Shown here: piece after piece, positions 4,602-50,690 of the stretch
How the letters are laid out: each line of letters begins with the position of its first letter
Numbering within the stretch: position 1 is the first letter of the stretch
Assembly: GCA_963819655.1 (NCBI GenBank)
Contig: CAWFXA010000001.1
Coordinates: 327,155-391,154, forward strand
Direction of reading: 5' to 3'
Length of the DNA stretch: 64,000 nt
From: an uncultured Chloroflexia bacterium
GTDB lineage: Bacteria; Chloroflexota; Limnocylindria; Limnocylindrales; CSP1-4
The notes under the pieces: model-generated
Told to the model about the DNA's origin: nothing
The model's input: the letters and a program-made list of their open reading frames with translations, nothing else
The model's database searches: none
Translations under genes and position numbers: made by a program

Positions 4602-5857
4602 ACGCGTCGCACGACATCGAACGAGACCTCGCACGGTGGATGGAGGCCGTCGCGCCGTCGCGGGCGCCCGACAACCTCGCGCCTGGGATCGTCGAACGAA
4701 CACGCTCGTTGCGGCCGCGTCCAGGTTGGCTCGCCCGCCTCATGGAGCCTCCGATGCAGACGCAACTTTCGTTGAGGAACTACTTTGGCTTCGGCCGATC
4801 CGCGCGGTTGATCCTCGTCGGCCTGCTGATCCTCGCCCTCACGGTCGGTGGGATCGTCGTGGGAAGCCAGCTCTTGCAGCAGCGACCCCTACCCCCTCCG
4901 TTCGGCCTCGCCGGCAATGGGTTGCTCGCAGCGAACGTCAACGGCGAGATCGTCCTCATGGAGCCTGACGGGTCGACCGCACAACCTCTCGTGCTGCCCT
5001 TCGAAGGCGTCACCGGGACCTCGTTCTCGCGCGACGGAACCAGGATCGCCGCGTGGGCGACTCCGGACACCGGTCGCGGGAGTCAGAAGTCGCTGATCGT
5101 CGCGAACGCAGATGGATCCGAGGCCTTCGAGGTCGACACTGCCAAGCTCGTCGGCGACCCTGGTTTTCGGATCGCCTGGTCACCGGACGATCGACGTCTG
5201 GCCTTCAGCGGGTCAGGCAATCGGCTGTACGTCGCCGACATCGACGCCCGAACGATCAGTGAACTCGGACCGGACGAGTCGATCAAGTTCCGCAAGGATC
5301 CCGCTTGGGCTCCGGACGGACGGCTCGCCTACCAATGCACGACCAGCGGCGTGCCGCACCTCTGCGTCATGAGTGCGGATTTTCAAGTCGAGCAGATGCT
5401 GCAGACGTCGGCCGGAACCGAGTTTGCGTTCCACGCCCCGTCGTGGTCACACGATGGCAGGTCGATCGCCTACCAGGTCGACGATACGATCGATCCCCAG
5501 CCTGGCGGCGGCTTCGGTTGGGACGTGGCCACGATCGACGTCGTCACCGGGAAAGAGAAGGTCCTCACGCGCGGCTTTGCGGACCACACCATCCTGCCGG
5601 TCTGGAGCCCGGACGACCGGCATCTGCTGTTCCTGACGGAAGGCGGTCCGGGTGTCGTGCGGTCCGACGGAACGGACCTGCGACTATTCGGGCAGACGGC
5701 GTGCCCATGGATCGAGCCGTCGCCCGATGGCGCATTTGCGACCTGCCCATCTGGCAACGAAGTCGTGCTGTACCCGATCGAGAGTGGCGGCCAGCCAACG
5801 GTCATCGAACTCGGAGGTCCGGTCGAATCCGTCAACTGGCAGCGCGTGGCCAACTGA
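4598..5857 (+). CDS. Anti-sigma factor: cytoplasmic N-domain, one TM helix, periplasmic TolB-like PD40 beta-propeller
   Basis: ATGA overlap with the upstream sigma gene. TM segment LILVGLLILALTVGGIVVG. Repeated W(S/A)PDxR(R/L)(L/A)(A/F) motifs (WSPDDRRLAF, WAPDGRLAY, WSHDGRSIAY, WSPDDRHLLF, PSPDGAFA). Confidence 0.75.
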   Translation: MNASHDIERDLARWMEAVAPSRAPDNLAPGIVERTRSLRPRPGWLARLMEPPMQTQLSLRNYFGFGRSARLILVGLLILALTVGGIVVGSQLLQQRPLPPPFGLAGNGLLAANVNGEIVLMEPDGSTAQPLVLPFEGVTGTSFSRDGTRIAAWATPDTGRGSQKSLIVANADGSEAFEVDTAKLVGDPGFRIAWSPDDRRLAFSGSGNRLYVADIDARTISELGPDESIKFRKDPAWAPDGRLAYQCTTSGVPHLCVMSADFQVEQMLQTSAGTEFAFHAPSWSHDGRSIAYQVDDTIDPQPGGGFGWDVATIDVVTGKEKVLTRGFADHTILPVWSPDDRHLLFLTEGGPGVVRSDGTDLRLFGQTACPWIEPSPDGAFATCPSGNEVVLYPIESGGQPTVIELGGPVESVNWQRVAN

Positions 5858-10039: not shown

Positions 10040-11167
10040 ATGTCCATCGCGCGGGACGCCGTGCTCCCCTCGCCGCCACGTGTGACGTTCATCCCGGGCG
10101 ATGGCATCGGGCCCGACGTGATGGGCGCGGCGCTGGCCGTGATCGAGGCGTCCGGGGCCACCATAGAGTGGGACGTGCGCCAGGCGGGTGCCGCAGCGGC
10201 CACTGACGGAGGTGAGAGCCTGCCCGACGACGTGGTCGAGGCGATCCGCGCGACGCGGGTCGCGCTGAAGGGCCCGACCGCGACAGCCACCCGCGGCGAA
10301 CGGGCCGTGAGCGTCCGCCTGCGTGCCGCGCTGGACCTCGAGCTCGGCATCCGGCCGGTGCGGAGCTGGCCAGGGGTCGTCGGGGCGGTCAACTCGGTGA
10401 CGTCGTCGAACCTCGACATCATGCTCATCCGGATGCTCGGGGAGGACCTGTACGCCGGCCTCGAGTTCGAAGCTGACGATCCGGCCGCCGTCGATCTCCG
10501 CCGGCTCTGGGCGTCCCGTGGTCGAGCCCTCCCAAAGGACACGGCCTTCTCATTGAAGGTGTTGTCGGACCGGGCGATCGAGCGGTTCGCCCGAGCCGCC
10601 CTGACGCAGGCGCGGATCCATGGCCGGCGGCGCATCACGATCGTCCACAAGGCGACCGTCATGCGGGCGACCGACGGTCGGTTCCGATCGATCGTGGAGG
10701 AGGTGGCGCGCAAGGTCGGGGGGTTCGAGGTCGACGACCGTCTCGTCGACACGGTCTGCCTCGACCTCATCCGTCACCCGGAGCGCTTCGACGTGCTGCT
10801 CGCGCCGGTGATGTACGGCGACATCCTGTCGGACGTGATCGCCGGGCTCGCCGGCGGGCTCGGCCTGGCGCCGGGCGCCAACATCGGGCGGCACGCCGCC
10901 GTCTTCGAGCCGGTCCACGGGACCGCGCCATCGCTCGCCGGACTCGACCGAGCCGACCCCATCGCGGCGATCCTGACGGGCGCCATGCTGCTACGACACC
11001 TCGACCTGCCGGTCGAGGCACAGCGGATCGAGACCGCGGTCCGCTGCACCCTGACGACCGGCAGCGTGCTGACCTATGACCTGGCAGGCGTCCCGCGCGA
11101 CCACGAACGCGCTGCGAGCACCCATGCCATGACCGACGCCGTGATCGCTGCGCTGCCTCCGGGGTGA
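10040..11167 (+). CDS. Isocitrate/isopropylmalate dehydrogenase family beta-decarboxylating dehydrogenase (tartrate/homoisocitrate DH-like)
   Basis: Family signature around MYGDILSDVIAGLAGGLGLAPGANIG, and N-terminal VTFIPGDGIGPDV. The stop overlaps the next gene's GTG (GTGA). Confidence 0.85.
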   Translation: MSIARDAVLPSPPRVTFIPGDGIGPDVMGAALAVIEASGATIEWDVRQAGAAAATDGGESLPDDVVEAIRATRVALKGPTATATRGERAVSVRLRAALDLELGIRPVRSWPGVVGAVNSVTSSNLDIMLIRMLGEDLYAGLEFEADDPAAVDLRRLWASRGRALPKDTAFSLKVLSDRAIERFARAALTQARIHGRRRITIVHKATVMRATDGRFRSIVEEVARKVGGFEVDDRLVDTVCLDLIRHPERFDVLLAPVMYGDILSDVIAGLAGGLGLAPGANIGRHAAVFEPVHGTAPSLAGLDRADPIAAILTGAMLLRHLDLPVEAQRIETAVRCTLTTGSVLTYDLAGVPRDHERAASTHAMTDAVIAALPPG

Positions 11168-41436: not shown

Positions 41437-42306
41437 TCACGACCAGGCGCCCTCCCAGGCCAGCTCCTCGCTCGCGAAGACCGGGCCTTCGCGGCACACG
41501 CGTTGCGGCGTGCCGGTCACGCTCATCACGACGCAGCCGAGGCACGCCCCCACCGCACATCCCATGTTCTGCTCCATCGACACCTGGAGGTACGCCTTCC
41601 GGCGCGCGGCGGGTGACCCGAGAGCTGCAGTCCGGCCCGCGCCGCGCTTGCGGCCGAGCTTCGCCACCCCGAGTCGCTGCCGGCGACCCTCGGCCTGCTT
41701 CGCGAGCGCCTTGAGCATCCCGGTCGGACCGCAGGCGAACGCCTGGTCGGCCCAGCCCTCGTAGTCCGGCACGAGATCGGTGACGAAACCGTGATGGCCC
41801 AGCGAGCCGTCGTCGGTCGCGACCACGTACTCGACCTCGTCGGGCAGGAGATTCGATGGATACACCTCGCGGGCGCTCGACGCTCCGAACAGCAGCGTCA
41901 CCTGGCGGCCGTCGCGGATCGCCTCATCGGCCAGCATCCGGACCCCGGCCATCCCGAGGCCACCGGCGATGAGCAACAGATGGCGGCTCCGCGGATCGAC
42001 TTCGAACGGGCGCCCGAGAGGACCCAGCAGGTCGATGGCGTCGCCCGGCCGCAGCCGGGTGAACCACTCCGTGCCGCGGCCGATGACGCGGAAATGGATC
42101 GTGACGATGCCGGTGGCAGGGTCGGCTGTGTTCAACGAGAAGGGGCGCCGAAGGACGAGGCCCGAGAAGTCGCCCGTGCGAACGTGGACGAACTGGCCGG
42201 CGCGCGACCCGTTCGCGAGATCGGGTGCGTGATACGCCTGGAGCCACTGACCCGGCAGGATCTCGCGACTCTCGACAAGCTCGGCCGCGGCGAGCCGCAT
42301 CGTCAC
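41437..42306 (-). CDS. pyrK: Dihydroorotate dehydrogenase electron-transfer subunit (FAD/NAD-binding, 2Fe-2S)
   Basis: Ferredoxin-reductase-like fold (RPFSL, LIAGGLGMAGV) and a C-terminal Cys cluster MGCAVGACLGCVV...C. Contains an Arg/Lys-rich insertion (KQAEGRRQRLGVAKLGRKRGAGR) before the Cys cluster. Confidence 0.75.
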   Translation of the reverse strand: MTMRLAAAELVESREILPGQWLQAYHAPDLANGSRAGQFVHVRTGDFSGLVLRRPFSLNTADPATGIVTIHFRVIGRGTEWFTRLRPGDAIDLLGPLGRPFEVDPRSRHLLLIAGGLGMAGVRMLADEAIRDGRQVTLLFGASSAREVYPSNLLPDEVEYVVATDDGSLGHHGFVTDLVPDYEGWADQAFACGPTGMLKALAKQAEGRRQRLGVAKLGRKRGAGRTAALGSPAARRKAYLQVSMEQNMGCAVGACLGCVVMSVTGTPQRVCREGPVFASEELAWEGAWS

Positions 42307-43328
42307 GCGGTCGGGCGGCCCTCCGTGCCCTCGTCGGCGGCGGACTCGTCCTCGGCCTCGTCCTCAGCGCTTTCGCCGTCGTCCTCGGCGGTTTCGCCGT
42401 CGCCCTCGGCGACCTCGGTCTCGGCGGCGGCGGTGTCGGCCTCAGCGCCGGGCGTGGCCTCCTCGTCGTCGATGTCACTCCCGGCGGCGGCGGCCGCGAA
42501 CTCAGGGGCGACCGACGGGTAGGCATCGGCCAGCGCGTCGGCGAGGTCCCCGAAGACATCGGTCGGGTCGTAGAACTCGACCAGCTCGTCGGGCCCCGTG
42601 AGGGTCCGCCACGAGCCGTCGGCCTCCTCGGGCACGACCTCCGCGCGGAACTCCCCGGTCGAGGTCAGGATGAGTCGCTCGTCGTCGTCGTCGACGATCA
42701 CGAGATCACCGATGAGGTTCGAGGCGGTCGCCGCGGCCGTCTCGAAATCGTCGAGCAGTCGCGCCTCGGTCCGCTGGCTGCGCTCCTGGTACTCGAGAGC
42801 CAGGTCGTACAGCCGCCGGGACGCTGCCTCGTCGTCGGCCAGATCGACATCGGCTGGCTGCCCCGCTGCCCACGAGTCGGCGGCGGCGGCGTAGGGGTCC
42901 TCACCACCCAGGCTGACGGTCTCTTCGGGGGCGATGCCCGCGGCCTCGAGCATCTCGTCGGTGGCGGTCGGTTCCTCGGTGAGACCGGCGGCCTCCTTGG
43001 CGGCCTCGGTGAAGGCTGCGTAGACGTCGGCCGGGTTGTACAGCTCGACCAGCTCCGAGGCCGTTTCGATGACTTCGGTCTCGCTCACCCAGTCGCCGGT
43101 CAGGTCGTCGAGGAAGCGCGTGCGGCTGCGGAACGTGCTGTCGGGTGCGATCGACAGGTAATCGGGCTCCTCATCGATCAGCGTCAGCCCGCCATAGGCG
43201 GCGATGCGCTCCTTGTGGCGGTCCAGGAACCGGCGCAGCTGGTCGGTCGACTGGACGAGGAAATCGGACCGCTCGAGGGCAGCGTCAGCCGCGATCTCGC
43301 CGAGCAGGTCGTTGCGGCCCGTATCCAT
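42303..43328 (-). CDS. Acidic hypothetical protein with two internal ~110-aa repeats and a poly-acidic C-terminal tail, translationally coupled (ATGA) to pyrK
   Basis: GGAGG RBS 6 nt upstream of ATG MDTGRNDLL. Repeats end ELVELYNPADVYAAF and ELVEFYDPTDVFGDL. The tail is AEGDGETAEDDGESAEDEAEDESAADEG. Confidence 0.55.
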   Translation of the reverse strand: MDTGRNDLLGEIAADAALERSDFLVQSTDQLRRFLDRHKERIAAYGGLTLIDEEPDYLSIAPDSTFRSRTRFLDDLTGDWVSETEVIETASELVELYNPADVYAAFTEAAKEAAGLTEEPTATDEMLEAAGIAPEETVSLGGEDPYAAAADSWAAGQPADVDLADDEAASRRLYDLALEYQERSQRTEARLLDDFETAAATASNLIGDLVIVDDDDERLILTSTGEFRAEVVPEEADGSWRTLTGPDELVEFYDPTDVFGDLADALADAYPSVAPEFAAAAAGSDIDDEEATPGAEADTAAAETEVAEGDGETAEDDGESAEDEAEDESAADEGTEGRPTA

Positions 43329-43408
43329 GGTTCGCCTCCTGTTCGGTTCGTCGCCCGGTGGCAGGACTTCGCGTCGAATTCCCAATGGTGCTCCTCGCTT
43401 GGCCTGGG

Positions 43409-43744
43409 TCAGGGATGGTATTCGAGGTCGGGGCCCATGCGCTCGCGCAGGAACATCGAATGATGGCGCTCGAAGATCCATTCGCCGGCCCGATGGCCGA
43501 GGGCGCGGGTCCCTTCGTCGGCCTCGAGCTTGTCGAGGGTCGCGTAATCGGGCAGATCGAGGAGGATGACGTTGTCGAAATCCCAGCCGTGCGCGACGTT
43601 GTACCAGCCGATGAACCGGATACCGAACCGCTCCTCGTACTCCTTCAACTGGCGCGGGAACAGAGTCTTCATGAAGAACTTGAAGAACGGGTCGCGGCCG
43701 CGGCGGACGGAGAAGTAGGTCGCGAGCACGGGCATGTGACCCAT
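43409..43744 (-). CDS. Small conserved hypothetical protein (~110 aa)
   Basis: Well-formed sequence MGHMPVLATYFSVRRGRDPFFKFFMKTLFPRQLKEYEERFGIRFIGWYNVAHGWDFDNVILLDLPDYATLDKLE... The longer in-frame upstream extension runs through a tandem repeat and is Arg/Pro-rich. Confidence 0.45.
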   Translation of the reverse strand: MGHMPVLATYFSVRRGRDPFFKFFMKTLFPRQLKEYEERFGIRFIGWYNVAHGWDFDNVILLDLPDYATLDKLEADEGTRALGHRAGEWIFERHHSMFLRERMGPDLEYHP

Positions 43745-43753
43745 TGTGTCATG

Positions 43754-43998
43754 GGGTCGCCGGCCCTCGCGGGGCCGCCCGGGTCGCGCCCCGGGTCGCG
43801 CCGGCCCTCGCGGGGCCGCCCGGGTTGCGCCCCCTGGTCGGTCACCGGGTGACCGAACGAGCGGATGAACCGCCACGATCGGTTCGTCCGAGGCCGATCG
43901 TTCGTCGATCCGGTCACGGGGTGACTGAACGGGCCTCTACCGCCCGGTCAGAGAGTCGCTGGAGCCGGGGCGTTCGTCGGTTCGGTCACCGGGTGACC
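43754..43998. repeat. Repeat cluster: two tandem copies of a ~40-bp unit (GGGTCGCGCCGGCCCTCGCGGGGCCGCCCGGGTYGCGCCCC) followed by three copies of the 15-bp palindrome GGTCACCGGGTGACC
   Basis: Direct reading. Palindromes at 43840-43854 (perfect), 43912-43926 (GGTCACGGGGTGACT) and 43984-43998 (perfect). Copies 1 and 2 share the extended unit GGTCACSGGGTGACYGAACGRGC. Confidence 0.6.
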
Positions 43999-44387
43999 CG
44001 TCGACCACCGAAGTCGCCTCGTCCTCGAGCTCGCCGACTGTCCGCGTGGCACTGCCCATCGGTCGTCGCCGGCTGCGGCGATCAGCCGCGACCAGGCGGA
44101 GCAGGAAGATGATCGTCTGCCCGGTCGTAAGGAGCAGGCCGATGACCGCGAACAGCAGCGCGGCGCTCACGGCCTCCGGCCAGCGCCACGCGACGCTCAG
44201 CGGCGTGAGGACGACGAACACAGCCAGCACCGCGAGCTGGAATCGGAAGCAACCCAATCCGGGACCACGCTGGGCCTCCAGGTCCGCCCCCTTGTACTGA
44301 ACCGGGCCCGACGGCCGCGGTGGCCGTGGCGGAGTCGGGTCGGTGTCGGTCGCGGCGGTCGCGTCGATCTGCGGGTCGGTCTCGGTC
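43937..44387 (-). CDS. Hypothetical membrane protein (~150 aa)
   Basis: Hydrophobic segments FRFQLAVLAVFVVLTPL and AALLFAVIGLLLTTGQTIIFLL. GTG start assumed. The C-terminal tail runs through palindrome copy 3, so the 3' extent is uncertain. Confidence 0.35.
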
Positions 44388-44409
44388 ACGAGCGGGAACG
44401 ATACGGGAG

Positions 44410-44958
44410 TCAGGCGGCAGGCGGATCCGTGGCAAGGCCGTCGACGACCTCGACGCCCGGGAGGGCGAGCAGGATCGACGGTGCGGCAAGCACCTTCCAC
44501 GACCTTGACCCGCCACCGAGCACGATCCGCTCGCGCTGCATGACGCGGCGGTCGACCCAGATCGGCAGCGAGGCCGGCAGCCCGAACACCGTGACGCCAC
44601 CGATCTCCATCCCGGTGATGTCGCGGGTCGACTCCGACGGAGCGAATGACGCCTTCCGCGTACCCAGCCGGTCACGCACCGCGCGGTTGACGTCGAGCCG
44701 GTTGGGGGCGAGCACGACACAGGCCGCATAGCGCGGTGGGTCGCTCTTGCCGATGACGAGGATCGTGTTGGCCGAGTCCTCGGGATCGAACCCGTAAGCG
44801 GCACAGAAGGCGGCGGTATCGGCCAGGGCGGGGTCACACGGGAACAGTTCGTAGTCGACACCGATCGGATCCAGAGCCGCGACGAGCCGGTGGCGACCCT
44901 CGGGATCGTGGCTGGCGAGATCGACATCGGACATCGGCCCAAGCGTAGTCGGTACCAT
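44410..44958 (-). CDS. YbaK/ProX-family aminoacyl-tRNA deacylase domain protein
   Basis: YbaK/EbsC-type domain (ANTILVIGKS...VVLAPNRLDVNRA...ITGMEIGGVTVFGLP). Confidence 0.6.
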   Translation of the reverse strand: MVPTTLGPMSDVDLASHDPEGRHRLVAALDPIGVDYELFPCDPALADTAAFCAAYGFDPEDSANTILVIGKSDPPRYAACVVLAPNRLDVNRAVRDRLGTRKASFAPSESTRDITGMEIGGVTVFGLPASLPIWVDRRVMQRERIVLGGGSRSWKVLAAPSILLALPGVEVVDGLATDPPAA

Positions 44959-44966
44959 CGCGGTCG

Positions 44967-46589
44967 ATGACCGACCGAACCACCCTCCAGCCACCGACCG
45001 ATGTGCCGGACATCGACGCCTACCTGAGGCGCTTCGACTGGCACCCGGAACCCGAGCTCATCGGCTATCGCGACGAGGCGACATCCCGGGCGGCCCTGGC
45101 CTCGTTGGGCGCCAAGACCTGGCACGAGGCACTGGCGTTCCTGTACGGCATCGCATCCCGGCGAGCCATGGGTGACGCGTCGCCTTATCCCGAGGCGAGG
45201 CGACGGTATTACGGGTCCGATCCCGCCGGTCCGCGCGACGGCCCGGGCGCCGCTCCGGATGGCCCCCTGCGAGCCGCCGAGGTGCTCGCCGAGTTCTCCG
45301 ACCGCCTCGCGGGCGGGCTCATGAACGCGCAGCATCCCCGCCAGTTCGGCTATTTCACACCGCCGCCGCTGCCGATGTCGATCATGGGAGAGCTGCTCGC
45401 CCAGATCGCCAACCAGGGCGTGGACGTCTGGCACGCCGGCCCGTTCGCGGCCTTCGCCGAGGAGGAGGTCGTCCGCTGGCTGTGCGACCTCGTCGGGTAC
45501 GGCCCGGGATCGTTCGGGCTGCTGACGAGCGGCGGGGTCATGGCCAACTTCATGGGCATGGCCCTGGCTCGCGACCTGCACCTTGGCCGCGCCCGCGGAC
45601 TCGCGGCGCCGCCGCGCGGCAAGGATCTCGAGGCTGCCCGTGTCTACACCAGCGACCAGACCCATTTCTCGATCGCGCGAGCGCTCGACGAACTGGGGTT
45701 CCCGCCCGAGACCCTGGTCGTGCTGCCATCCGACGACGACTTCCGCCTCCGCGGAGCCCCCCTCGCTGAGGCCGTGGCACGTGATCGGGGCGCCGGGCTG
45801 ACGCCATTCGCCATCGCCGCGGTCGCCGGTTCGACGAACACCGGCTCGGTCGATGCCATCGGGGAGCTGGCCGACGTCGCCGATGCCGAGGGTCTGTGGC
45901 TCCACGTGGACGCTGCATACGGCGGCGGGGCCCGCCTGTCCGAGCGGGACCGTGATCGCGTCCCCGACCTGGAGCGCGCGCATTCCGTCACGGTCGATCC
46001 CCACAAGTGGTTCTTCCAGGCATATGACATCGGGGGCCTGCTGGTCCGCGACGGCCGGGCGCTGGCTGCGGTATTCGGCGGCCGGGCTCCCGAGTACTAC
46101 CGCGGCGGGGAGACTCCAGGGAGCGGCGTCCTGGACTCCTTGCCTGACGATGAGCACGACCAACACGCCGACCAGCTCAACTTCTACAAGCTGTCATTCG
46201 AGGGAACTCGCCGGTGGCGGGCGCTCAAGCTGTGGATGACCTGGAAGCACCTCGGGACGCGCGGCTTGGGACGGCTCGTCGAGGCCAATGACGACCTCGC
46301 CGCCTACCTCGCCGCGCGCTGTGCGGCGGACGACGATCTGGAGGCGCTGCCGGCCGTGCCGGAACTGTCGGTGGTGTGTTTCCGGCATGTCCCTGCGGGC
46401 CTCGCTGGGGAGGCGCTCGACGCCCACCAAGACCGACTCCAGGCTGCGCTGGAGGTGTCCGGTGACGGCTGGCTGACGACGACCCGCCTGCGTGGCGCCA
46501 CCTGGCTCCGTGCCGGGATCGTCAACTACCTCTCTACTGAGGCCGACATCGACCGATTGCTCGACACGCTGCGACGACTCGCGGGATGA
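44967..46589 (+). CDS. Pyridoxal-phosphate-dependent group II amino-acid decarboxylase (DABA/tyrosine/glutamate decarboxylase family)
   Basis: PLP-lysine motif SVTVDPHKW. Gly-rich loop SGGVMANFMGMALAR. HVDAAYGG. Confidence 0.85.
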   Translation: MTDRTTLQPPTDVPDIDAYLRRFDWHPEPELIGYRDEATSRAALASLGAKTWHEALAFLYGIASRRAMGDASPYPEARRRYYGSDPAGPRDGPGAAPDGPLRAAEVLAEFSDRLAGGLMNAQHPRQFGYFTPPPLPMSIMGELLAQIANQGVDVWHAGPFAAFAEEEVVRWLCDLVGYGPGSFGLLTSGGVMANFMGMALARDLHLGRARGLAAPPRGKDLEAARVYTSDQTHFSIARALDELGFPPETLVVLPSDDDFRLRGAPLAEAVARDRGAGLTPFAIAAVAGSTNTGSVDAIGELADVADAEGLWLHVDAAYGGGARLSERDRDRVPDLERAHSVTVDPHKWFFQAYDIGGLLVRDGRALAAVFGGRAPEYYRGGETPGSGVLDSLPDDEHDQHADQLNFYKLSFEGTRRWRALKLWMTWKHLGTRGLGRLVEANDDLAAYLAARCAADDDLEALPAVPELSVVCFRHVPAGLAGEALDAHQDRLQAALEVSGDGWLTTTRLRGATWLRAGIVNYLSTEADIDRLLDTLRRLAG

Positions 46590-47026
46590 GGTCGGTATTC
46601 GCCCTGGTCCTGATCATCGCGCTGGCGACGATGGCGATCGTGGCGTGCTCGGCCGTCCCGGTCTTCGGGCGGTGCGATGTGATGCTCACGGCCCTGCCCC
46701 CGGGAACGCTCATCGACGAGACTGCCCCGTTGCCGGCCGACGCCGTCGTGCTCGCTGGCCCGGCGGATTTCGATCCGGACGCCACGAGCCTCGAGCGTTT
46801 CGAGGACAGCTTTCGGCTTTCGCTCCAACTCCGGGGCGACGCGGTGGGTCGGGTGGCCGCGCATACGGCGGGCCACCCTGGAGACCAGGTGGCGATCGCG
46901 ATCAATGGCCAAGTCGTGCTCGTGCCGATCATCCAGGAGCCCATCCTCGACGGCGTCATCGAGGTATTCCCCGGGGGGCTCGACCCGGATGGGTTCGAGC
47001 AACAGTTCGCGGGCTGCATTCGCTAG
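46586..47026 (+). CDS. Small lipoprotein (146 aa)
   Basis: ATGA overlap with the decarboxylase stop. Lipobox AIVACS. Confidence 0.5.
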   Translation: MRSVFALVLIIALATMAIVACSAVPVFGRCDVMLTALPPGTLIDETAPLPADAVVLAGPADFDPDATSLERFEDSFRLSLQLRGDAVGRVAAHTAGHPGDQVAIAINGQVVLVPIIQEPILDGVIEVFPGGLDPDGFEQQFAGCIR

Positions 47027-48117
47027 GCGGTCGGACCTTCACCCAGCGGCGCCGGTCGATAGCACCGGGACGTGACGGCCTCGACGCGACCTGACGAGGT
47101 CGCCGACTCGATCGCCAGCAGCACGTCGAGCACATGGAAGGCGAGCTCGCCGCTCGCCCGATGCGGCTCCTTCGATCGGATCCCGGCGATGAGGTCCGCG
47201 AGCCCGATCCCCCGGCCGACCGAAGCGTCGAAGCGGAGCGGTATCAGCTCCCAATCGCGGGCGCCGAGTGGCCGATAGCGCACCTCCCCGTCGAACTGAT
47301 CCGGATCGCCGAGGATCAGCGAGCCCGCGGTCCCGTGGATCTCGAAATGCGGCGCCTCACTACCCACGACATCGAACGACGCCGTCAGCCCGCCGACAGC
47401 GCCCGACTCGAAGGCGAGCGCCGCGATCGCCGTGGTCGGGACCTCGGCCGTGACGGTTCCTCCAGCACGCGGCCCAGACCCGATCGGCCGCTCGGTACCC
47501 ACACCGCGCCCGACCGCGGACGCGGCGACGATCGGGCCGAGGAGCGATACCAGCGCCGTCGCGTAGTACGGCCCGACATCGAGCAACGGCCCACCGCCGG
47601 TCGCATAGAAGATGCCCGGGTTGGAGTGCCAGGACTCCGGCCCGAGGTGGGCCACGGATGCGGTCGCCGCGATCGGAGTCCCGATGGCCCCTTCGTCGAT
47701 GAGTGCCCGCGCCGTCTGCAAGCCGCCGCCGAGAAACGTGTCCGGAGCGGCACCGACGCGGACGCCCGCGTCACGCGCCTCGGCAAGGACCGTCCGCGCG
47801 TCGTCGAGCGTCGTTGCGAGCGGCTTCTCCGAGTAGACGTGCTTGCCGGCCCGGATGGCCGCCAGCGACACGGCGGCGTGGGCTGCCGGGGGCGTCAGGT
47901 TGAGGACGATGTCGATGGTCGGGTCGGCCAGGAGGGTGTCGATGTCGACGGCCGGGAAGCCACCGGCGGTCGCGACCGCCTCGGCGCGGGTCGAGTCGAG
48001 GTCCGCGCACGACGCCAGCTGGATGATCGGCAGGCGCGCCATGGAGGGCAGGTACAAGCCTGTGACATCGCCGCAACCGACCATCCCGACCCGGGCCGGG
48101 CGTTCCTCCACGATCAC
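47023..48117 (-). CDS. Gfo/Idh/MocA-family NAD(P)-dependent oxidoreductase
   Basis: Rossmann N-terminus ARVGMVGCGDV...IRAGKHVYSEKP. GTG start overlaps the upstream gene's stop (GTGA). Confidence 0.75.
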   Translation of the reverse strand: MIVEERPARVGMVGCGDVTGLYLPSMARLPIIQLASCADLDSTRAEAVATAGGFPAVDIDTLLADPTIDIVLNLTPPAAHAAVSLAAIRAGKHVYSEKPLATTLDDARTVLAEARDAGVRVGAAPDTFLGGGLQTARALIDEGAIGTPIAATASVAHLGPESWHSNPGIFYATGGGPLLDVGPYYATALVSLLGPIVAASAVGRGVGTERPIGSGPRAGGTVTAEVPTTAIAALAFESGAVGGLTASFDVVGSEAPHFEIHGTAGSLILGDPDQFDGEVRYRPLGARDWELIPLRFDASVGRGIGLADLIAGIRSKEPHRASGELAFHVLDVLLAIESATSSGRVEAVTSRCYRPAPLGEGPTA

Positions 48118-48935
48118 GTGCCGCGGCTGCGGGCGAGCCCTCGAGCCGTCAGGTTTGCGAGGCTCTGCCGGGTCGCCGTGATGGCGGACCCCTCGACGTG
48201 GTCGAACTCGACGATGAGCCACTCGACCGATCCCTGGGCCTCCGCCGCGGCGATGGCGGGACCCGGATCGACCACTCCCGTCCCGACGGGCACGTTGACG
48301 AACGGTTCGTCGGCATAAGCCGACCGTGGCAGCTCGATCCCGTCCTTGACGTGCAGCGACACAACGCGCTCGCCGAGTCGGCTGATCACTGTCGCCGGGT
48401 CGGCCCCGCCGACGACCACCCAGAAGATGTCGACCTGGAAGTCGACGGCGTCGCCGAGGCCAGCAGCGAGGCGATCGATGACCGACGTCCCATCGACGTC
48501 GGTCATCTCCGTGTCGTGGTTGTGGTACGTCAGGCGGAGGCCGTGCGTCGCAGCCACCCCGGCGACAGTCCCGACCTGGTCGATGAGCGCACTGACCCCG
48601 CCCAGCGTCGCAACAGCACGCGGCGTGACCACCACGCGCGGCGACCCGAGCTCCGCGATGGCCGCCGCGGCCCGCGCGAATGCCATGGGATCCGCGAGAT
48701 CGGCCCATGTGTGTGAGCTCGTGACGGCGAGCCCCAGGTCCGCCAGGAGGCGCCGCGCCCCGACCGCATCACCACCCGGGACGTCGACCGTCTCGACCCC
48801 GAGATAGCCGCTGGCCGCGATCGCATCGAGCGTCACGATGTCCAGGCCCATACCCGCGCCCCCGAACCGGACCGGATCGCGGAACGTGTAGAGCTGGACG
48901 GCCAGCGGCGGCGGTTCGCGGTGCGGCTCAACCAT
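48114..48935 (-). CDS. Sugar phosphate isomerase/epimerase (xylose-isomerase-like TIM barrel)
   Basis: Family-typical LAVQLYTF...LGVETVD...LTYHNHDTEM...VSLHVKD. Confidence 0.7.
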   Translation of the reverse strand: MVEPHREPPPLAVQLYTFRDPVRFGGAGMGLDIVTLDAIAASGYLGVETVDVPGGDAVGARRLLADLGLAVTSSHTWADLADPMAFARAAAAIAELGSPRVVVTPRAVATLGGVSALIDQVGTVAGVAATHGLRLTYHNHDTEMTDVDGTSVIDRLAAGLGDAVDFQVDIFWVVVGGADPATVISRLGERVVSLHVKDGIELPRSAYADEPFVNVPVGTGVVDPGPAIAAAEAQGSVEWLIVEFDHVEGSAITATRQSLANLTARGLARSRGT

Positions 48936-49332
48936 GTCCGTGGAGCAACCCGCCGACGTGTTCGAGCAGCTTCCAGGCGACCTCGGCATCACCCTTCACG
49001 AACGCTCGGAAGTCCCAGAACGTCATGACCAGCGTCCGCAGGTCGGTCGTCGCGGTGATGGTCGCGGTCCGGACGCGGTCGCTGATGAGGGCGACCTCGC
49101 CGAAATAGCTGCCAGGCCCCACCGTGTCGACCTCTTTGCCCCCGACGCTGACGACCCCCTCGCCCTCAACGACGACGAAGAAGCCCATCCCATGGGTGTC
49201 GCCTTCGCGCACGACGACACTACCGGCAGGGAACGTGCGTTCGGTGAAGTCGCGTGCCAGGCGCTCGAGTTCTTTCCTGTCGAGGCTCGAGAGCAACGGC
49301 ACCTTGGCCAGGAGTTCGACGGACTCGGACAT
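48928..49332 (-). CDS. Stand-alone cyclic-nucleotide-binding (cNMP/CAP-effector) domain protein (134 aa)
   Basis: cNMP-binding signature GDTHGMGFFVVVEGEGVV...GSYFGEVALISDRVRTATITA. GGAGAC RBS upstream of the ATG. Confidence 0.7.
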   Translation of the reverse strand: MSESVELLAKVPLLSSLDRKELERLARDFTERTFPAGSVVVREGDTHGMGFFVVVEGEGVVSVGGKEVDTVGPGSYFGEVALISDRVRTATITATTDLRTLVMTFWDFRAFVKGDAEVAWKLLEHVGGLLHGHG

Positions 49333-49370
49333 GACGGTCTCCACCTGCGGATGATCGACGTTCAGTTGGA

Positions 49371-50690
49371 CTATCCACCGTTGCGCGAGCGCGCGGCCAG
49401 CCGGTCCTGCAGGCGGAACCACTCCCCGGCGAACGGCATGAACCAGGGCCGGCCTTCGTAGGGTGCCGGCACGAGCGGGAACCGCAGGCGCGTGAGGGCC
49501 GGCGCCTCGCCACCGGCCAGCCAGGCACCGACCTTCGTGCCGAGGTTGGTCATCAGGGCGACACCCGTTCCGCAACAGCCCATCGCGTAGGTGACGCCGT
49601 CCTTCGTCCGCCCGACGTGCGGCATCCGGTCGAACGTGAAGCCGACGTTGCCGCCCCACGCGTACTCGATGCGGTAGTCGGCCATCTGCGGGTGGACCTC
49701 GACGAGACCCTTCCACAGGATCGCCGCCGTCTTGTCGATGGTCGTGGGCATGAACGACGCTCGACCGCCGAAGACCATCCGACGGTCCGCCGACACGTGC
49801 CAGTAGTACAGGAAGTTCTTCGTGTCGAAGAAGGCGCGCCCCTTGGGCGACAGCTCGTGGGCGATGTCCTCCGGGAGCTGCTCCGAGGCGATGATGAACG
49901 AGCCGATCGGGATGATCCGTCGGCGGAGCGATGGCACGACGCCGTCGGTGTAGCCGTTGGTCGCGACGAAGACATCGCGAGCGCGGATCGCGCCGCGCGT
50001 GGTCTCGACCCTGAACGTGCCATCCCCCTGGCGCCGGATCGAGCGGGCACGCACGCCCTCGTGCAGGTCTGCGCCGGCTCGGTCTGCGGCGGCGGCCAGG
50101 CCAGCGAAATACCGACCCGGATGCAGCAGCCCGGTGGCCTCGACCACGAGCGCGCCGTAATACGCATCGCTGCCGATCTCCTCGCGGATGCGCTCGCGGG
50201 GCACGACCGTCGAACTGACACCGACCGACGCCAGGCTCTCACGCGCATGCTCGAGCTCGGGCGCGTGAGCGGGCGCGTATGCAAGCTCGAGGTGCCCGAT
50301 CTCCCTGAAGTCGCAATCGATGGACTCCTCATCGATCAACCGCTTCACGAGCCGGTAGGAATCGAGCGTCTCCTGGTAGAGCGCCTTGCCGGTCTGGATC
50401 CCGTAACGCTTGATCAGCTGGCTGGCGCTCCACTTGTAGCCGGCGTGGACGATGCCGCCATTCCGCGTCGACGCGCCCCATCCCAGGGTATGGGCCTCGA
50501 GCAGCGTGACGGCGACGCCCCGGCGTGCCAGCTCGCGGGCGGCCATGACGCCCGCGTAACCACCACCGATCACGACGACGTCCGCCTCGGCGGGCAGATC
50601 GCGGCCGGACCGGTCTGGGAGTGGTGCCATCGACGCCTGCCAGAAGGCGCGGCGTTCGAAGTCGGTGTTCAGAGGCGGGGTCGCGGCCAT
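49371..50690 (-). CDS. FAD-dependent oxidoreductase (DadA/PuuB/glycine-oxidase-like amine oxidase family)
   Basis: Dinucleotide-binding motif DVVVIGGGYAGVMAARELARRG. DAO-family C-terminal region. Confidence 0.8.
   Translation of the reverse strand: MAATPPLNTDFERRAFWQASMAPLPDRSGRDLPAEADVVVIGGGYAGVMAARELARRGVAVTLLEAHTLGWGASTRNGGIVHAGYKWSASQLIKRYGIQTGKALYQETLDSYRLVKRLIDEESIDCDFREIGHLELAYAPAHAPELEHARESLASVGVSSTVVPRERIREEIGSDAYYGALVVEATGLLHPGRYFAGLAAAADRAGADLHEGVRARSIRRQGDGTFRVETTRGAIRARDVFVATNGYTDGVVPSLRRRIIPIGSFIIASEQLPEDIAHELSPKGRAFFDTKNFLYYWHVSADRRMVFGGRASFMPTTIDKTAAILWKGLVEVHPQMADYRIEYAWGGNVGFTFDRMPHVGRTKDGVTYAMGCCGTGVALMTNLGTKVGAWLAGGEAPALTRLRFPLVPAPYEGRPWFMPFAGEWFRLQDRLAARSRNGG

Follow-up and report, generated by a model that had tools for sequence, protein, structure and literature searches.

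The question raised by this locus is why a short palindrome recurs three times, at regular intervals, between an open reading frame (ORF) for a membrane protein and a small conserved gene in a 64-kb stretch of a Limnocylindrales genome (64,000 nucleotides of contig CAWFXA010000001.1, referred to as the window). A first-pass annotation of this DNA had proposed operator sites for a dimeric regulator or, alternatively, small REP/MITE-like intergenic repeats. Our analysis favored, with a probability of about 0.6, an array belonging to a REP-, BOX-, or MIRU-like interspersed modular repeat family of Limnocylindria-type Chloroflexota, located in a hypervariable spacer.

The palindrome GGTCACCGGGTGACC was found without mismatches at 43840-43854 and 43984-43998, while the middle copy at 43912-43926 (GGTCACGGGGTGACT) had two mismatches and was perfect in L056, an orthologous locus described below. 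The start-to-start spacing was exactly 72 and 72 nt, in agreement with the three copies at ~70-bp intervals (two perfect and one with two mismatches) described previously, and copies 1 and 2 agreed at 21 of the 24 nt of the extended unit that they had been reported to share. The proposed 7-1-7 symmetry held for copy 3 (43984-43998; the first unit in gene sense), but copy 1 (the last unit in gene sense) was in fact a 9-1-9 palindrome at 43838-43856 (TCGGTCACCGGGTGACCGA; 19-mer palindrome, TCGGTCACCSGGTGACCGA) around the core at 43840-43854. With up to one mismatch allowed, the pattern GGTCACSGGGTGAC gave five strand-matches in the window, all on these three sites, and no further copy was present; dinucleotide shuffles gave 0.15 +/- 0.39 matches, none of 100 reaching five. 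Both perfect palindromes also contained two overlapping copies (GGTCACC and GGTGACC) of GGTNACC, the motif recognized by BstEII-type restriction enzymes.

Both flanking genes are encoded on the minus strand, and when read in this sense each repeat unit consisted of a 5' box, the palindrome, and a 3' box, in that order. The 3' boxes of units 1 and 2 were located at 43971-43979 (sense, CGACGAACG; plus strand, CGTTCGTCG) and 43899-43907 (sense, CGACGAACG), and the 5' boxes of units 2 and 3 at 43927-43934 (sense, GCCCGTTC; plus strand, GAACGGGC; complementary to the 3' box) and 43855-43862 (sense, GCTCGTTC). The whole array comprised three units in direct orientation (43838-44006, minus strand), which aligned with 11 further units from L056, L081, and L082. 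Tandem Repeats Finder did not report the 72-nt period because the likeness between units was limited to cores of roughly 34 nt.

When 80 syntenic Limnocylindrales loci (L001-L080) were compared, the array was detected in only one, L056 (CAVRFH010000004.1), with three palindromes and the same 72/72 spacing. A metagenome scan using GTCACNNNGTGACCGNNNCGACGAACG revealed two further places in unrelated surroundings. In L082/L084, six units with spacings of 61, 61, 71, 61, and 61 nt lay between a beta-lactamase-family gene and a convergent ORF of 123-160 amino acids, and the last palindrome of L082 contained the TGA stop codon of the beta-lactamase-family gene. In L081, two units 72 nt apart were located within the 125 nt between the stop codons of convergent MFS transporter and M20-peptidase genes. 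L082 (assembly GCA_016307145.1) was assigned to Chloroflexota from its MsrA protein, which clusters at at least 90% identity with Chloroflexota proteins from metagenome-assembled genomes. The search for copies elsewhere and across orthologous loci, by which the earlier annotation had proposed to separate its two readings, favored the repeat over the operator. A short-read assembly of the L082 locus (L085; Logan contig SRR14001467_228) ended at 10945, inside the second unit of the six-unit array; assembly breaks of this kind are typical of repeats. A lone degenerate copy (GGTCATCGGGTGATC; two mismatches) was found at 5836-5850 of L035, in the orthologous spacer and with differing flanks (GAACG...CGTTG), and may be a relic or a chance occurrence. 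A scan of viral contigs with TTCGGTCACCNGGTGACCG gave one match, L083, which was rejected as a chance match (GNSRGHRVTEMPY) within coding sequence on an unrelated contig. When arrays were sought through the spurious ORFs that they are predicted to create (152-amino acid query; words FGHRVT, SPGDR, and GHPVTE), none of the 676 word candidates reached E <=10.

The 14 units of the four arrays (2, 3, 3, and 6 units in L081, the window, L056, and L082, respectively) aligned with near-invariant cores. The unit consensus was GTTCG-GTCACC-S-GGTGAC-CG-nnn-CGACGAACGAG, also written GTTCGGTCACC-S-GGTGACCG-nnn-CGACGAACGAG, and this conserved part of ~34 nt was followed by a less conserved linker of 26-37 nt. 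Judging from the flanking boxes, the units were arranged head to tail in the same orientation in every array, with a period of 61 or 71-72 nt; the difference between these lengths corresponds to about one helical turn. The arrays had truncated ends: the last unit lacked the 3' box in three of the four arrays (the window, L056, and L081), and the first unit lacked the 5' box in the window and L056. The linkers were also related to one another, with z = 4.2 between linker 2 of the window and the linker of L081, and z = 5.5-6.1 among the linkers of L082. A CRISPR-like array was therefore excluded, and the repeated entity was the whole unit of 61-72 nt. The arrays filled the space just past stop codons, and could supply the stop and the last codons of the adjoining ORF.

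Between the window and L056, the array (43838-44014) was 88.7% identical and its linkers 84-90% identical, whereas third codon positions in six flanking genes were only 59-76% identical. The 28 substitutions over 195 aligned positions avoided the palindrome arms and boxes, so that the cores diverged by ~3% compared with ~35% at synonymous sites. The predicted folding energy of the L056 array was -101.3 kcal/mol, while controls carrying the same substitutions at random positions gave -88.8 +/- 5.5 kcal/mol, and none of 100 was as low; the antisense strand gave the same outcome. Since the substitutions in L056 avoided arms and boxes and preserved the folding energy, the cores have been kept, either by selection or by homogenization. 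This core conservation fits hairpin function and protein recognition alike.

The spacer itself was highly variable: between the point where conservation of the membrane ORF ends (residue ~125; 44015 in the window) and the small gene, the 80 loci had from 23 to 1077 nt. A unit that recurs at the ends of unrelated genes makes a dedicated on/off switch for the small gene very unlikely, and recalls several known families. The REP/MITE-like alternative of the earlier annotation was correct in that the repeat recurs in unrelated contexts; its form, on the other hand, proved to be modular and tandem.

BOX elements of Streptococcus pneumoniae are extragenic, have the structure boxA-(boxB)n-boxC with predicted stem-loops, and vary in length by the gain or loss of modules (PMC3049150). 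Pneumococcal repeats including BOX are over-represented between convergent genes (PMC3049150), as were two of the three array contexts in this study. The likeness to BOX lies in a modular interspersed repeat with end modules and a variable number of tandem internal modules (here 2, 3, and 6 units with truncated ends), and is claimed for the architecture alone: the host in this study belongs to another phylum with 70% G+C, every unit contains a perfect palindrome, and the end modules are truncated units.

In Pseudomonas fluorescens, REPs form evenly spaced tandem arrays and 71-bp doublets (PMC3116915). The present repeat shares with REPs an imperfect or perfect palindrome of 20-40 nt outside genes, at 3' ends, as single copies or evenly spaced clusters, with spacings of ~71-72 bp in both cases. 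For REPs, a role as hairpins in mRNA or single-stranded DNA has been proposed, and a hairpin of -8.6 to -16 kcal/mol was predicted here for the palindrome of 15-19 nt in the conserved unit of ~34 nt. REPs of Enterobacteria and Pseudomonas are dispersed over tens to hundreds of sites per genome, and the cognate RAYT gene (a Y1 transposase) is flanked by REPs. Unlike REPINs, which are inverted doublets, the units of these arrays were all direct. A conserved GTAG-type 5' tetranucleotide is a feature of REPs, and none was present beside the palindromes; membership in the REPIN/RAYT system is not claimed.

Mycobacterial interspersed repetitive units (MIRUs) are direct tandem units of 40-100 bp with variable copy number, which are scattered in intergenic DNA and overlap the stop or start codons of flanking ORFs. 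The array units (61-72 nt) similarly supply stop codons in the window and L082. However, MIRUs are not based on perfect palindromes, are mostly located between co-directional genes of operons, and have no sequence relation to the palindromic array. The literature searched contained no paper with the array sequence and none linking Limnocylindria with palindromic repeats.

Several observations weigh against an interspersed repeat family whose palindromes act as hairpins. The family was seen in only three genomic contexts, each from a different assembly, and no further copies were found in the 64-kb window, 20.8 kb of L084, or ~0.9 Mb of related loci. No transposase was present among the ORFs scanned, which covered part of the window, and neither a target-site duplication nor a clean empty site was definable because the spacer was too diverged. 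The single hairpins were modest and unexceptional compared with shuffles of the G+C-rich sequence itself, and no U-tract terminator was called in 43300-44500. The arms never varied in a compensatory manner across the 14 units, a pattern that fits protein recognition as well as structure. Furthermore, the conservation between the window and L056 above the synonymous level could reflect a function specific to this locus.

Other readings are based on protein binding at the DNA level. As operators, the palindromes would be sites for a dimeric TetR-, MarR-, or GntR-type regulator controlling the promoter of the small gene (43409-43735). Their perfect two-fold symmetry and length (~15 bp) resemble the repeated symmetric sites of such repressors, they lie upstream of a -10-like box of the small gene, their arms, unlike their variable center bases, were strongly conserved between the window and L056, as in operator half-sites, and the 72-nt spacing is near seven helical turns. 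However, this reading is improbable, in part because the array was absent from 79 of the 80 orthologous loci, all of which retain the gene, synteny, and -10-like box, and because arrays recurred between convergent genes in L081 and L082, where a promoter is not expected. Nor was the geometry kept: the center of the nearest palindrome and the -10-like box were 99 nt apart in the window but 76 nt apart in L056. Of the three sites, two lay 170-250 nt upstream and one was within the tail of an ORF. Among the 15 neighboring ORFs scanned, none had a Pfam match to a helix-turn-helix family. A phased scaffold for a dimeric DNA-binding protein (nucleoid-associated, partition-type as in sopC/parC, or REP-recognizing) would have its main role on DNA rather than in RNA, and accords with arms nearly invariant in 14 units from at least three genomes without compensatory variation, with cores far less diverged (~3%) than synonymous sites (~35%), and with the two unit lengths (61 and 71-72 nt), which are about one helical turn apart. 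Plasmid centromeres likewise consist of direct repeats, each with a palindrome; sopC of F comprises 12 copies of 43 bp. We nevertheless consider such a scaffold rather unlikely, since no candidate protein was found and no par genes were present among the nearby ORFs examined, the arrays are small and located in ordinary chromosomal gene neighborhoods, and REP-type elements would show the same conservation. A related, speculative proposal is that the arrays are the DNA half of an undescribed repeat-protein partnership in Limnocylindria, in which a dimeric protein recognizes the invariant GGTCAC/GTGACC arms; the partner could be a RAYT-like enzyme, a nucleoid-associated protein, or a partition-type protein. 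If this doubtful proposal were true, the protein would be loaded on phased sites, and the arrays would be chromosomal insulators or organizers at gene ends instead of passive selfish repeats. The low divergence of the cores relative to synonymous sites would fit such a partnership.

The remaining explanations are specific to the locus or to a different class of array. A structured RNA of ~170 nt, either a 3' untranslated region of the membrane-protein gene or a small RNA with helices built from the palindromes, was suggested by the minus-strand fold (-97.1 kcal/mol; z = -2.2), by the preservation of the fold in L056, where one compensatory U-A to C-G pair and three one-sided pair-keeping changes were found, and by the finding that the spacer of relatives contains another element of ~180 nt, likewise closed by a helix but different in kind. 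On the other hand, the units recurred at unrelated loci in differing numbers, the palindrome partners differed between the single-sequence fold (P3-P1) and the two-sequence consensus (P3-P2), and the antisense strand scored equally, which indicates that the folding signal stems from the palindromes themselves. Two sequences also provide almost no covariation power. The whole window had no match in Rfam 15 at gathering score, and 43300-44500 gave only chance-level matches (E >=0.46 with a cut-off of E 10). A structured RNA confined to this locus therefore has a slim chance of being correct, and its specific form, with the whole region as one RNA closed by P3-P1, was rejected on the basis of the P3-P2 consensus and the similar behavior of the antisense strand. 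Repeats of ~34 nt that are partly palindromic and "spacers" of 26-40 nt fall within the length range of CRISPR; however, a degenerate or orphan CRISPR-like mini-array is practically negligible as an explanation, since these "spacers" are homologous to one another and between unrelated loci, the terminal repeats are truncated in a modular fashion, the arrays overlap ORF ends, no Rfam CRISPR repeat matched the array, and no cas genes were present among the ORFs examined. A purely local and neutral tandem duplication has precedents in the unrelated tandem repeats in the same spacer of L044, L069, L063, L057, and L006, and in the 41-nt duplication next to the array, but is highly improbable for a unit that occurs in other genomic contexts with cores far more conserved than synonymous sites.

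As an interspersed repeat family, the arrays may have spread or been maintained like REP, BOX, or MIRU, by an enzyme or by recombination, with their copy number changing through slippage or unequal exchange. The family would tolerate, or prefer, DNA just past stop codons, and in the window the array has replaced the native tail of the membrane ORF and is located upstream of the -10-like box of the small gene. At the 3' ends of transcripts, each array probably forms a hairpin or binds a protein. Being perfect, the palindrome would give the same G+C-rich hairpin from either strand and would thus be suited to sites between convergent genes, where it could serve as a barrier at RNA 3' ends in both directions. 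When transcribed, the palindromes may promote termination without a U-tract or protect against 3'-exonucleases. In the window, the array would insulate the transcript of the membrane-protein and YbaK-like genes from the separately promoted small gene. A protein that maintains the family may, in addition, recognize the cores.

REP, BOX, MIRU, and similar repeats are known mainly from cultured Proteobacteria, Firmicutes, and Actinobacteria, whereas Limnocylindria is an abundant uncultured class of Chloroflexota in soil and freshwater. Since the arrays extend ORFs and supply stop codons, recognition of the family would prevent their misannotation as operators, CRISPR arrays, or coding sequence. 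The family would also explain assembly breaks in short-read metagenome-assembled genomes, offer variable-number markers for strain typing, and give a handle for finding its maintaining protein.

The history of the locus was mosaic. The window was 93-97% identical to its closest relatives, L001 and L002, from 43,600 down to 37,700 and at 48,100-49,600, but across roughly 43,750-48,050 its identity to them was only ~80%, the level seen with all other relatives. This tract of ~4.3 kb contained the array, the membrane ORF, the YbaK-like gene, a pyridoxal 5'-phosphate (PLP)-dependent decarboxylase gene, and the ORF at 46.5-47 kb, and one of its breakpoints coincided with the spacer and the start of the small gene. 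L001/L002 carried a different spacer element of ~180 nt and a promoter region of the type with a leader, while the window and L056 were both of the leaderless type (see below). The array therefore came with a recombined segment or is located at its edge.

Beside the palindromes, the tandem duplication of ~40 bp noted previously was real, with a period of 41 nt (43754-43835; copies at 43758-43792 and 43799-43833, 97% identical over 35 nt). Each copy contained a G+C-rich hairpin, CGGCCC-TCGCG-GGGCCG (43761-43777 and 43802-43818). L056 had only one copy of the 41-nt sequence, and the duplication is therefore recent and specific to the lineage of the window. A 12-nt direct repeat flanks it, which points to a recent slippage event between these repeats, probably neutral.

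The gene order around the array was a YbaK-like editing domain (44410-44994), the membrane ORF, the array, the small gene, an acidic protein of 341 amino acids, PyrK, and PyrD, and all neighbors were on the minus strand except the PLP-dependent decarboxylase. The membrane ORF (43937-44389, minus strand), which matched no family, was conserved at residues 1 to ~125 (44015-44389), and the repeat array supplied its last 25 codons (43940-44014) and the TAG stop codon (43937-43939). This tail had no codon-position conservation pattern against L056 (0.96/0.88/0.88). Copy 3, together with ~50 nt around it, was identical in L056; it lies inside the 3' end of the ORF as annotated previously, but the frame is 43937-44389 and, since conservation among orthologues ends at about residue 125, the copy sits in a non-conserved tail.

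The small gene encodes 108 amino acids (MPVLATYF...; 43409-43735, minus strand). Its bounds had been given as 43409-43744, but the start conserved in most homologues is the ATG at 43735. The membrane ORF preceded it in all 80 syntenic loci. The protein was 80-98% identical across Limnocylindrales in hundreds of metagenomic proteins; homologues with a named source were from Candidatus Limnocylindrales/Limnocylindria or Chloroflexota. Relatives were encoded in at least 533 genome stretches, with 46 of the 108 alignment columns invariant. No Pfam, NCBIfam, or PDB sequence match was found. The AlphaFold model was of moderate confidence (mean predicted local distance difference test score, 67.5), and the only matches in a fold search were weak (E >=0.095; template modeling score, about 0.5), to dimeric alpha/beta-barrel proteins of the ferredoxin-like type, including NIPSNAP, ABM monooxygenases, and rhamnose mutarotase. 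The N-terminal extensions of 21 close homologues contained no repeat-encoded peptides.

A conserved -10-like box (43743-43752, minus strand; sense, ATGACACAAT, consisting of TG, one base, and CACAAT) was located 7 nt before the ATG at 43735. A box of type GTGCGACAAT or ATGACACAAT preceded the small gene in the window and in each of the 80 loci, with the ATGACACAAT version in the window and eight relatives. Judging from its sequence, the box is likely an extended -10 element (TG, one base, and GACAAT or CACAAT) and the promoter of the small gene. A consensus scan for promoters and terminators called nothing in 43300-44500, the -10-like box included; its requirements, a minimum of 9 matches in the 12 hexamer positions and a U-tract, are unsuited to an organism with 70% G+C. 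The conservation of the box in the 80 loci and the window means that the small gene has its own promoter-like element, with the array upstream, and it is likely this box, rather than the array, that drives the small gene. In the window and 15 loci, 6-9 nt separated the end of the box from the ATG, a distance suggestive of a leaderless mRNA, whereas the remaining loci had a leader of 20-99 nt with a hairpin and GGAGG after the box. One highly conserved gene would thus appear to switch between leaderless and leadered expression within one order.

The spacer is a hot spot in other lineages too. Its tandem repeats comprised ~8 copies of a 30-nt unit in L044 and ~7 copies of a 22-nt unit in L069, besides those in L063, L057, and L006, and L009, L037, L049, L058, and L026 had inserts of 0.8-1.1 kb, probably with extra ORFs. 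Many loci carried the element of ~150-200 nt closed by a long helix: L001 5688-5866, L002 5692-5868, L008 5731-5895, L021 5733-5894, L013 5750-5916, L014 5776-5920, L060 285-472, L063 5441-5638, L069 5528-5727, and L026 about 5626-5792. In L001, its arms were CCGCCAGATACTCGCC and GGCGAGTATCTGGCGG, with inner pairing between TTAGGCGC and GCGCCTAAC. An nhmmer profile of nine elements found nothing in the window, and descent of the array from this element was rejected. No Rfam match was obtained at E <=5, and no copy was present elsewhere in ~0.9 Mb of loci. Two-sided changes that preserved pairing were seen at 11 of the 22 closing pairs predicted for the nine aligned elements, and the element may represent either a structured RNA that is not yet described or a group of insertions that form hairpins. 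In addition, the ORF of the acidic 341-amino acid protein (42303-43328), which has no Pfam or NCBIfam family, contained a 21-nt tandem repeat at 42358-42411 (2.6 copies; 90% matches).

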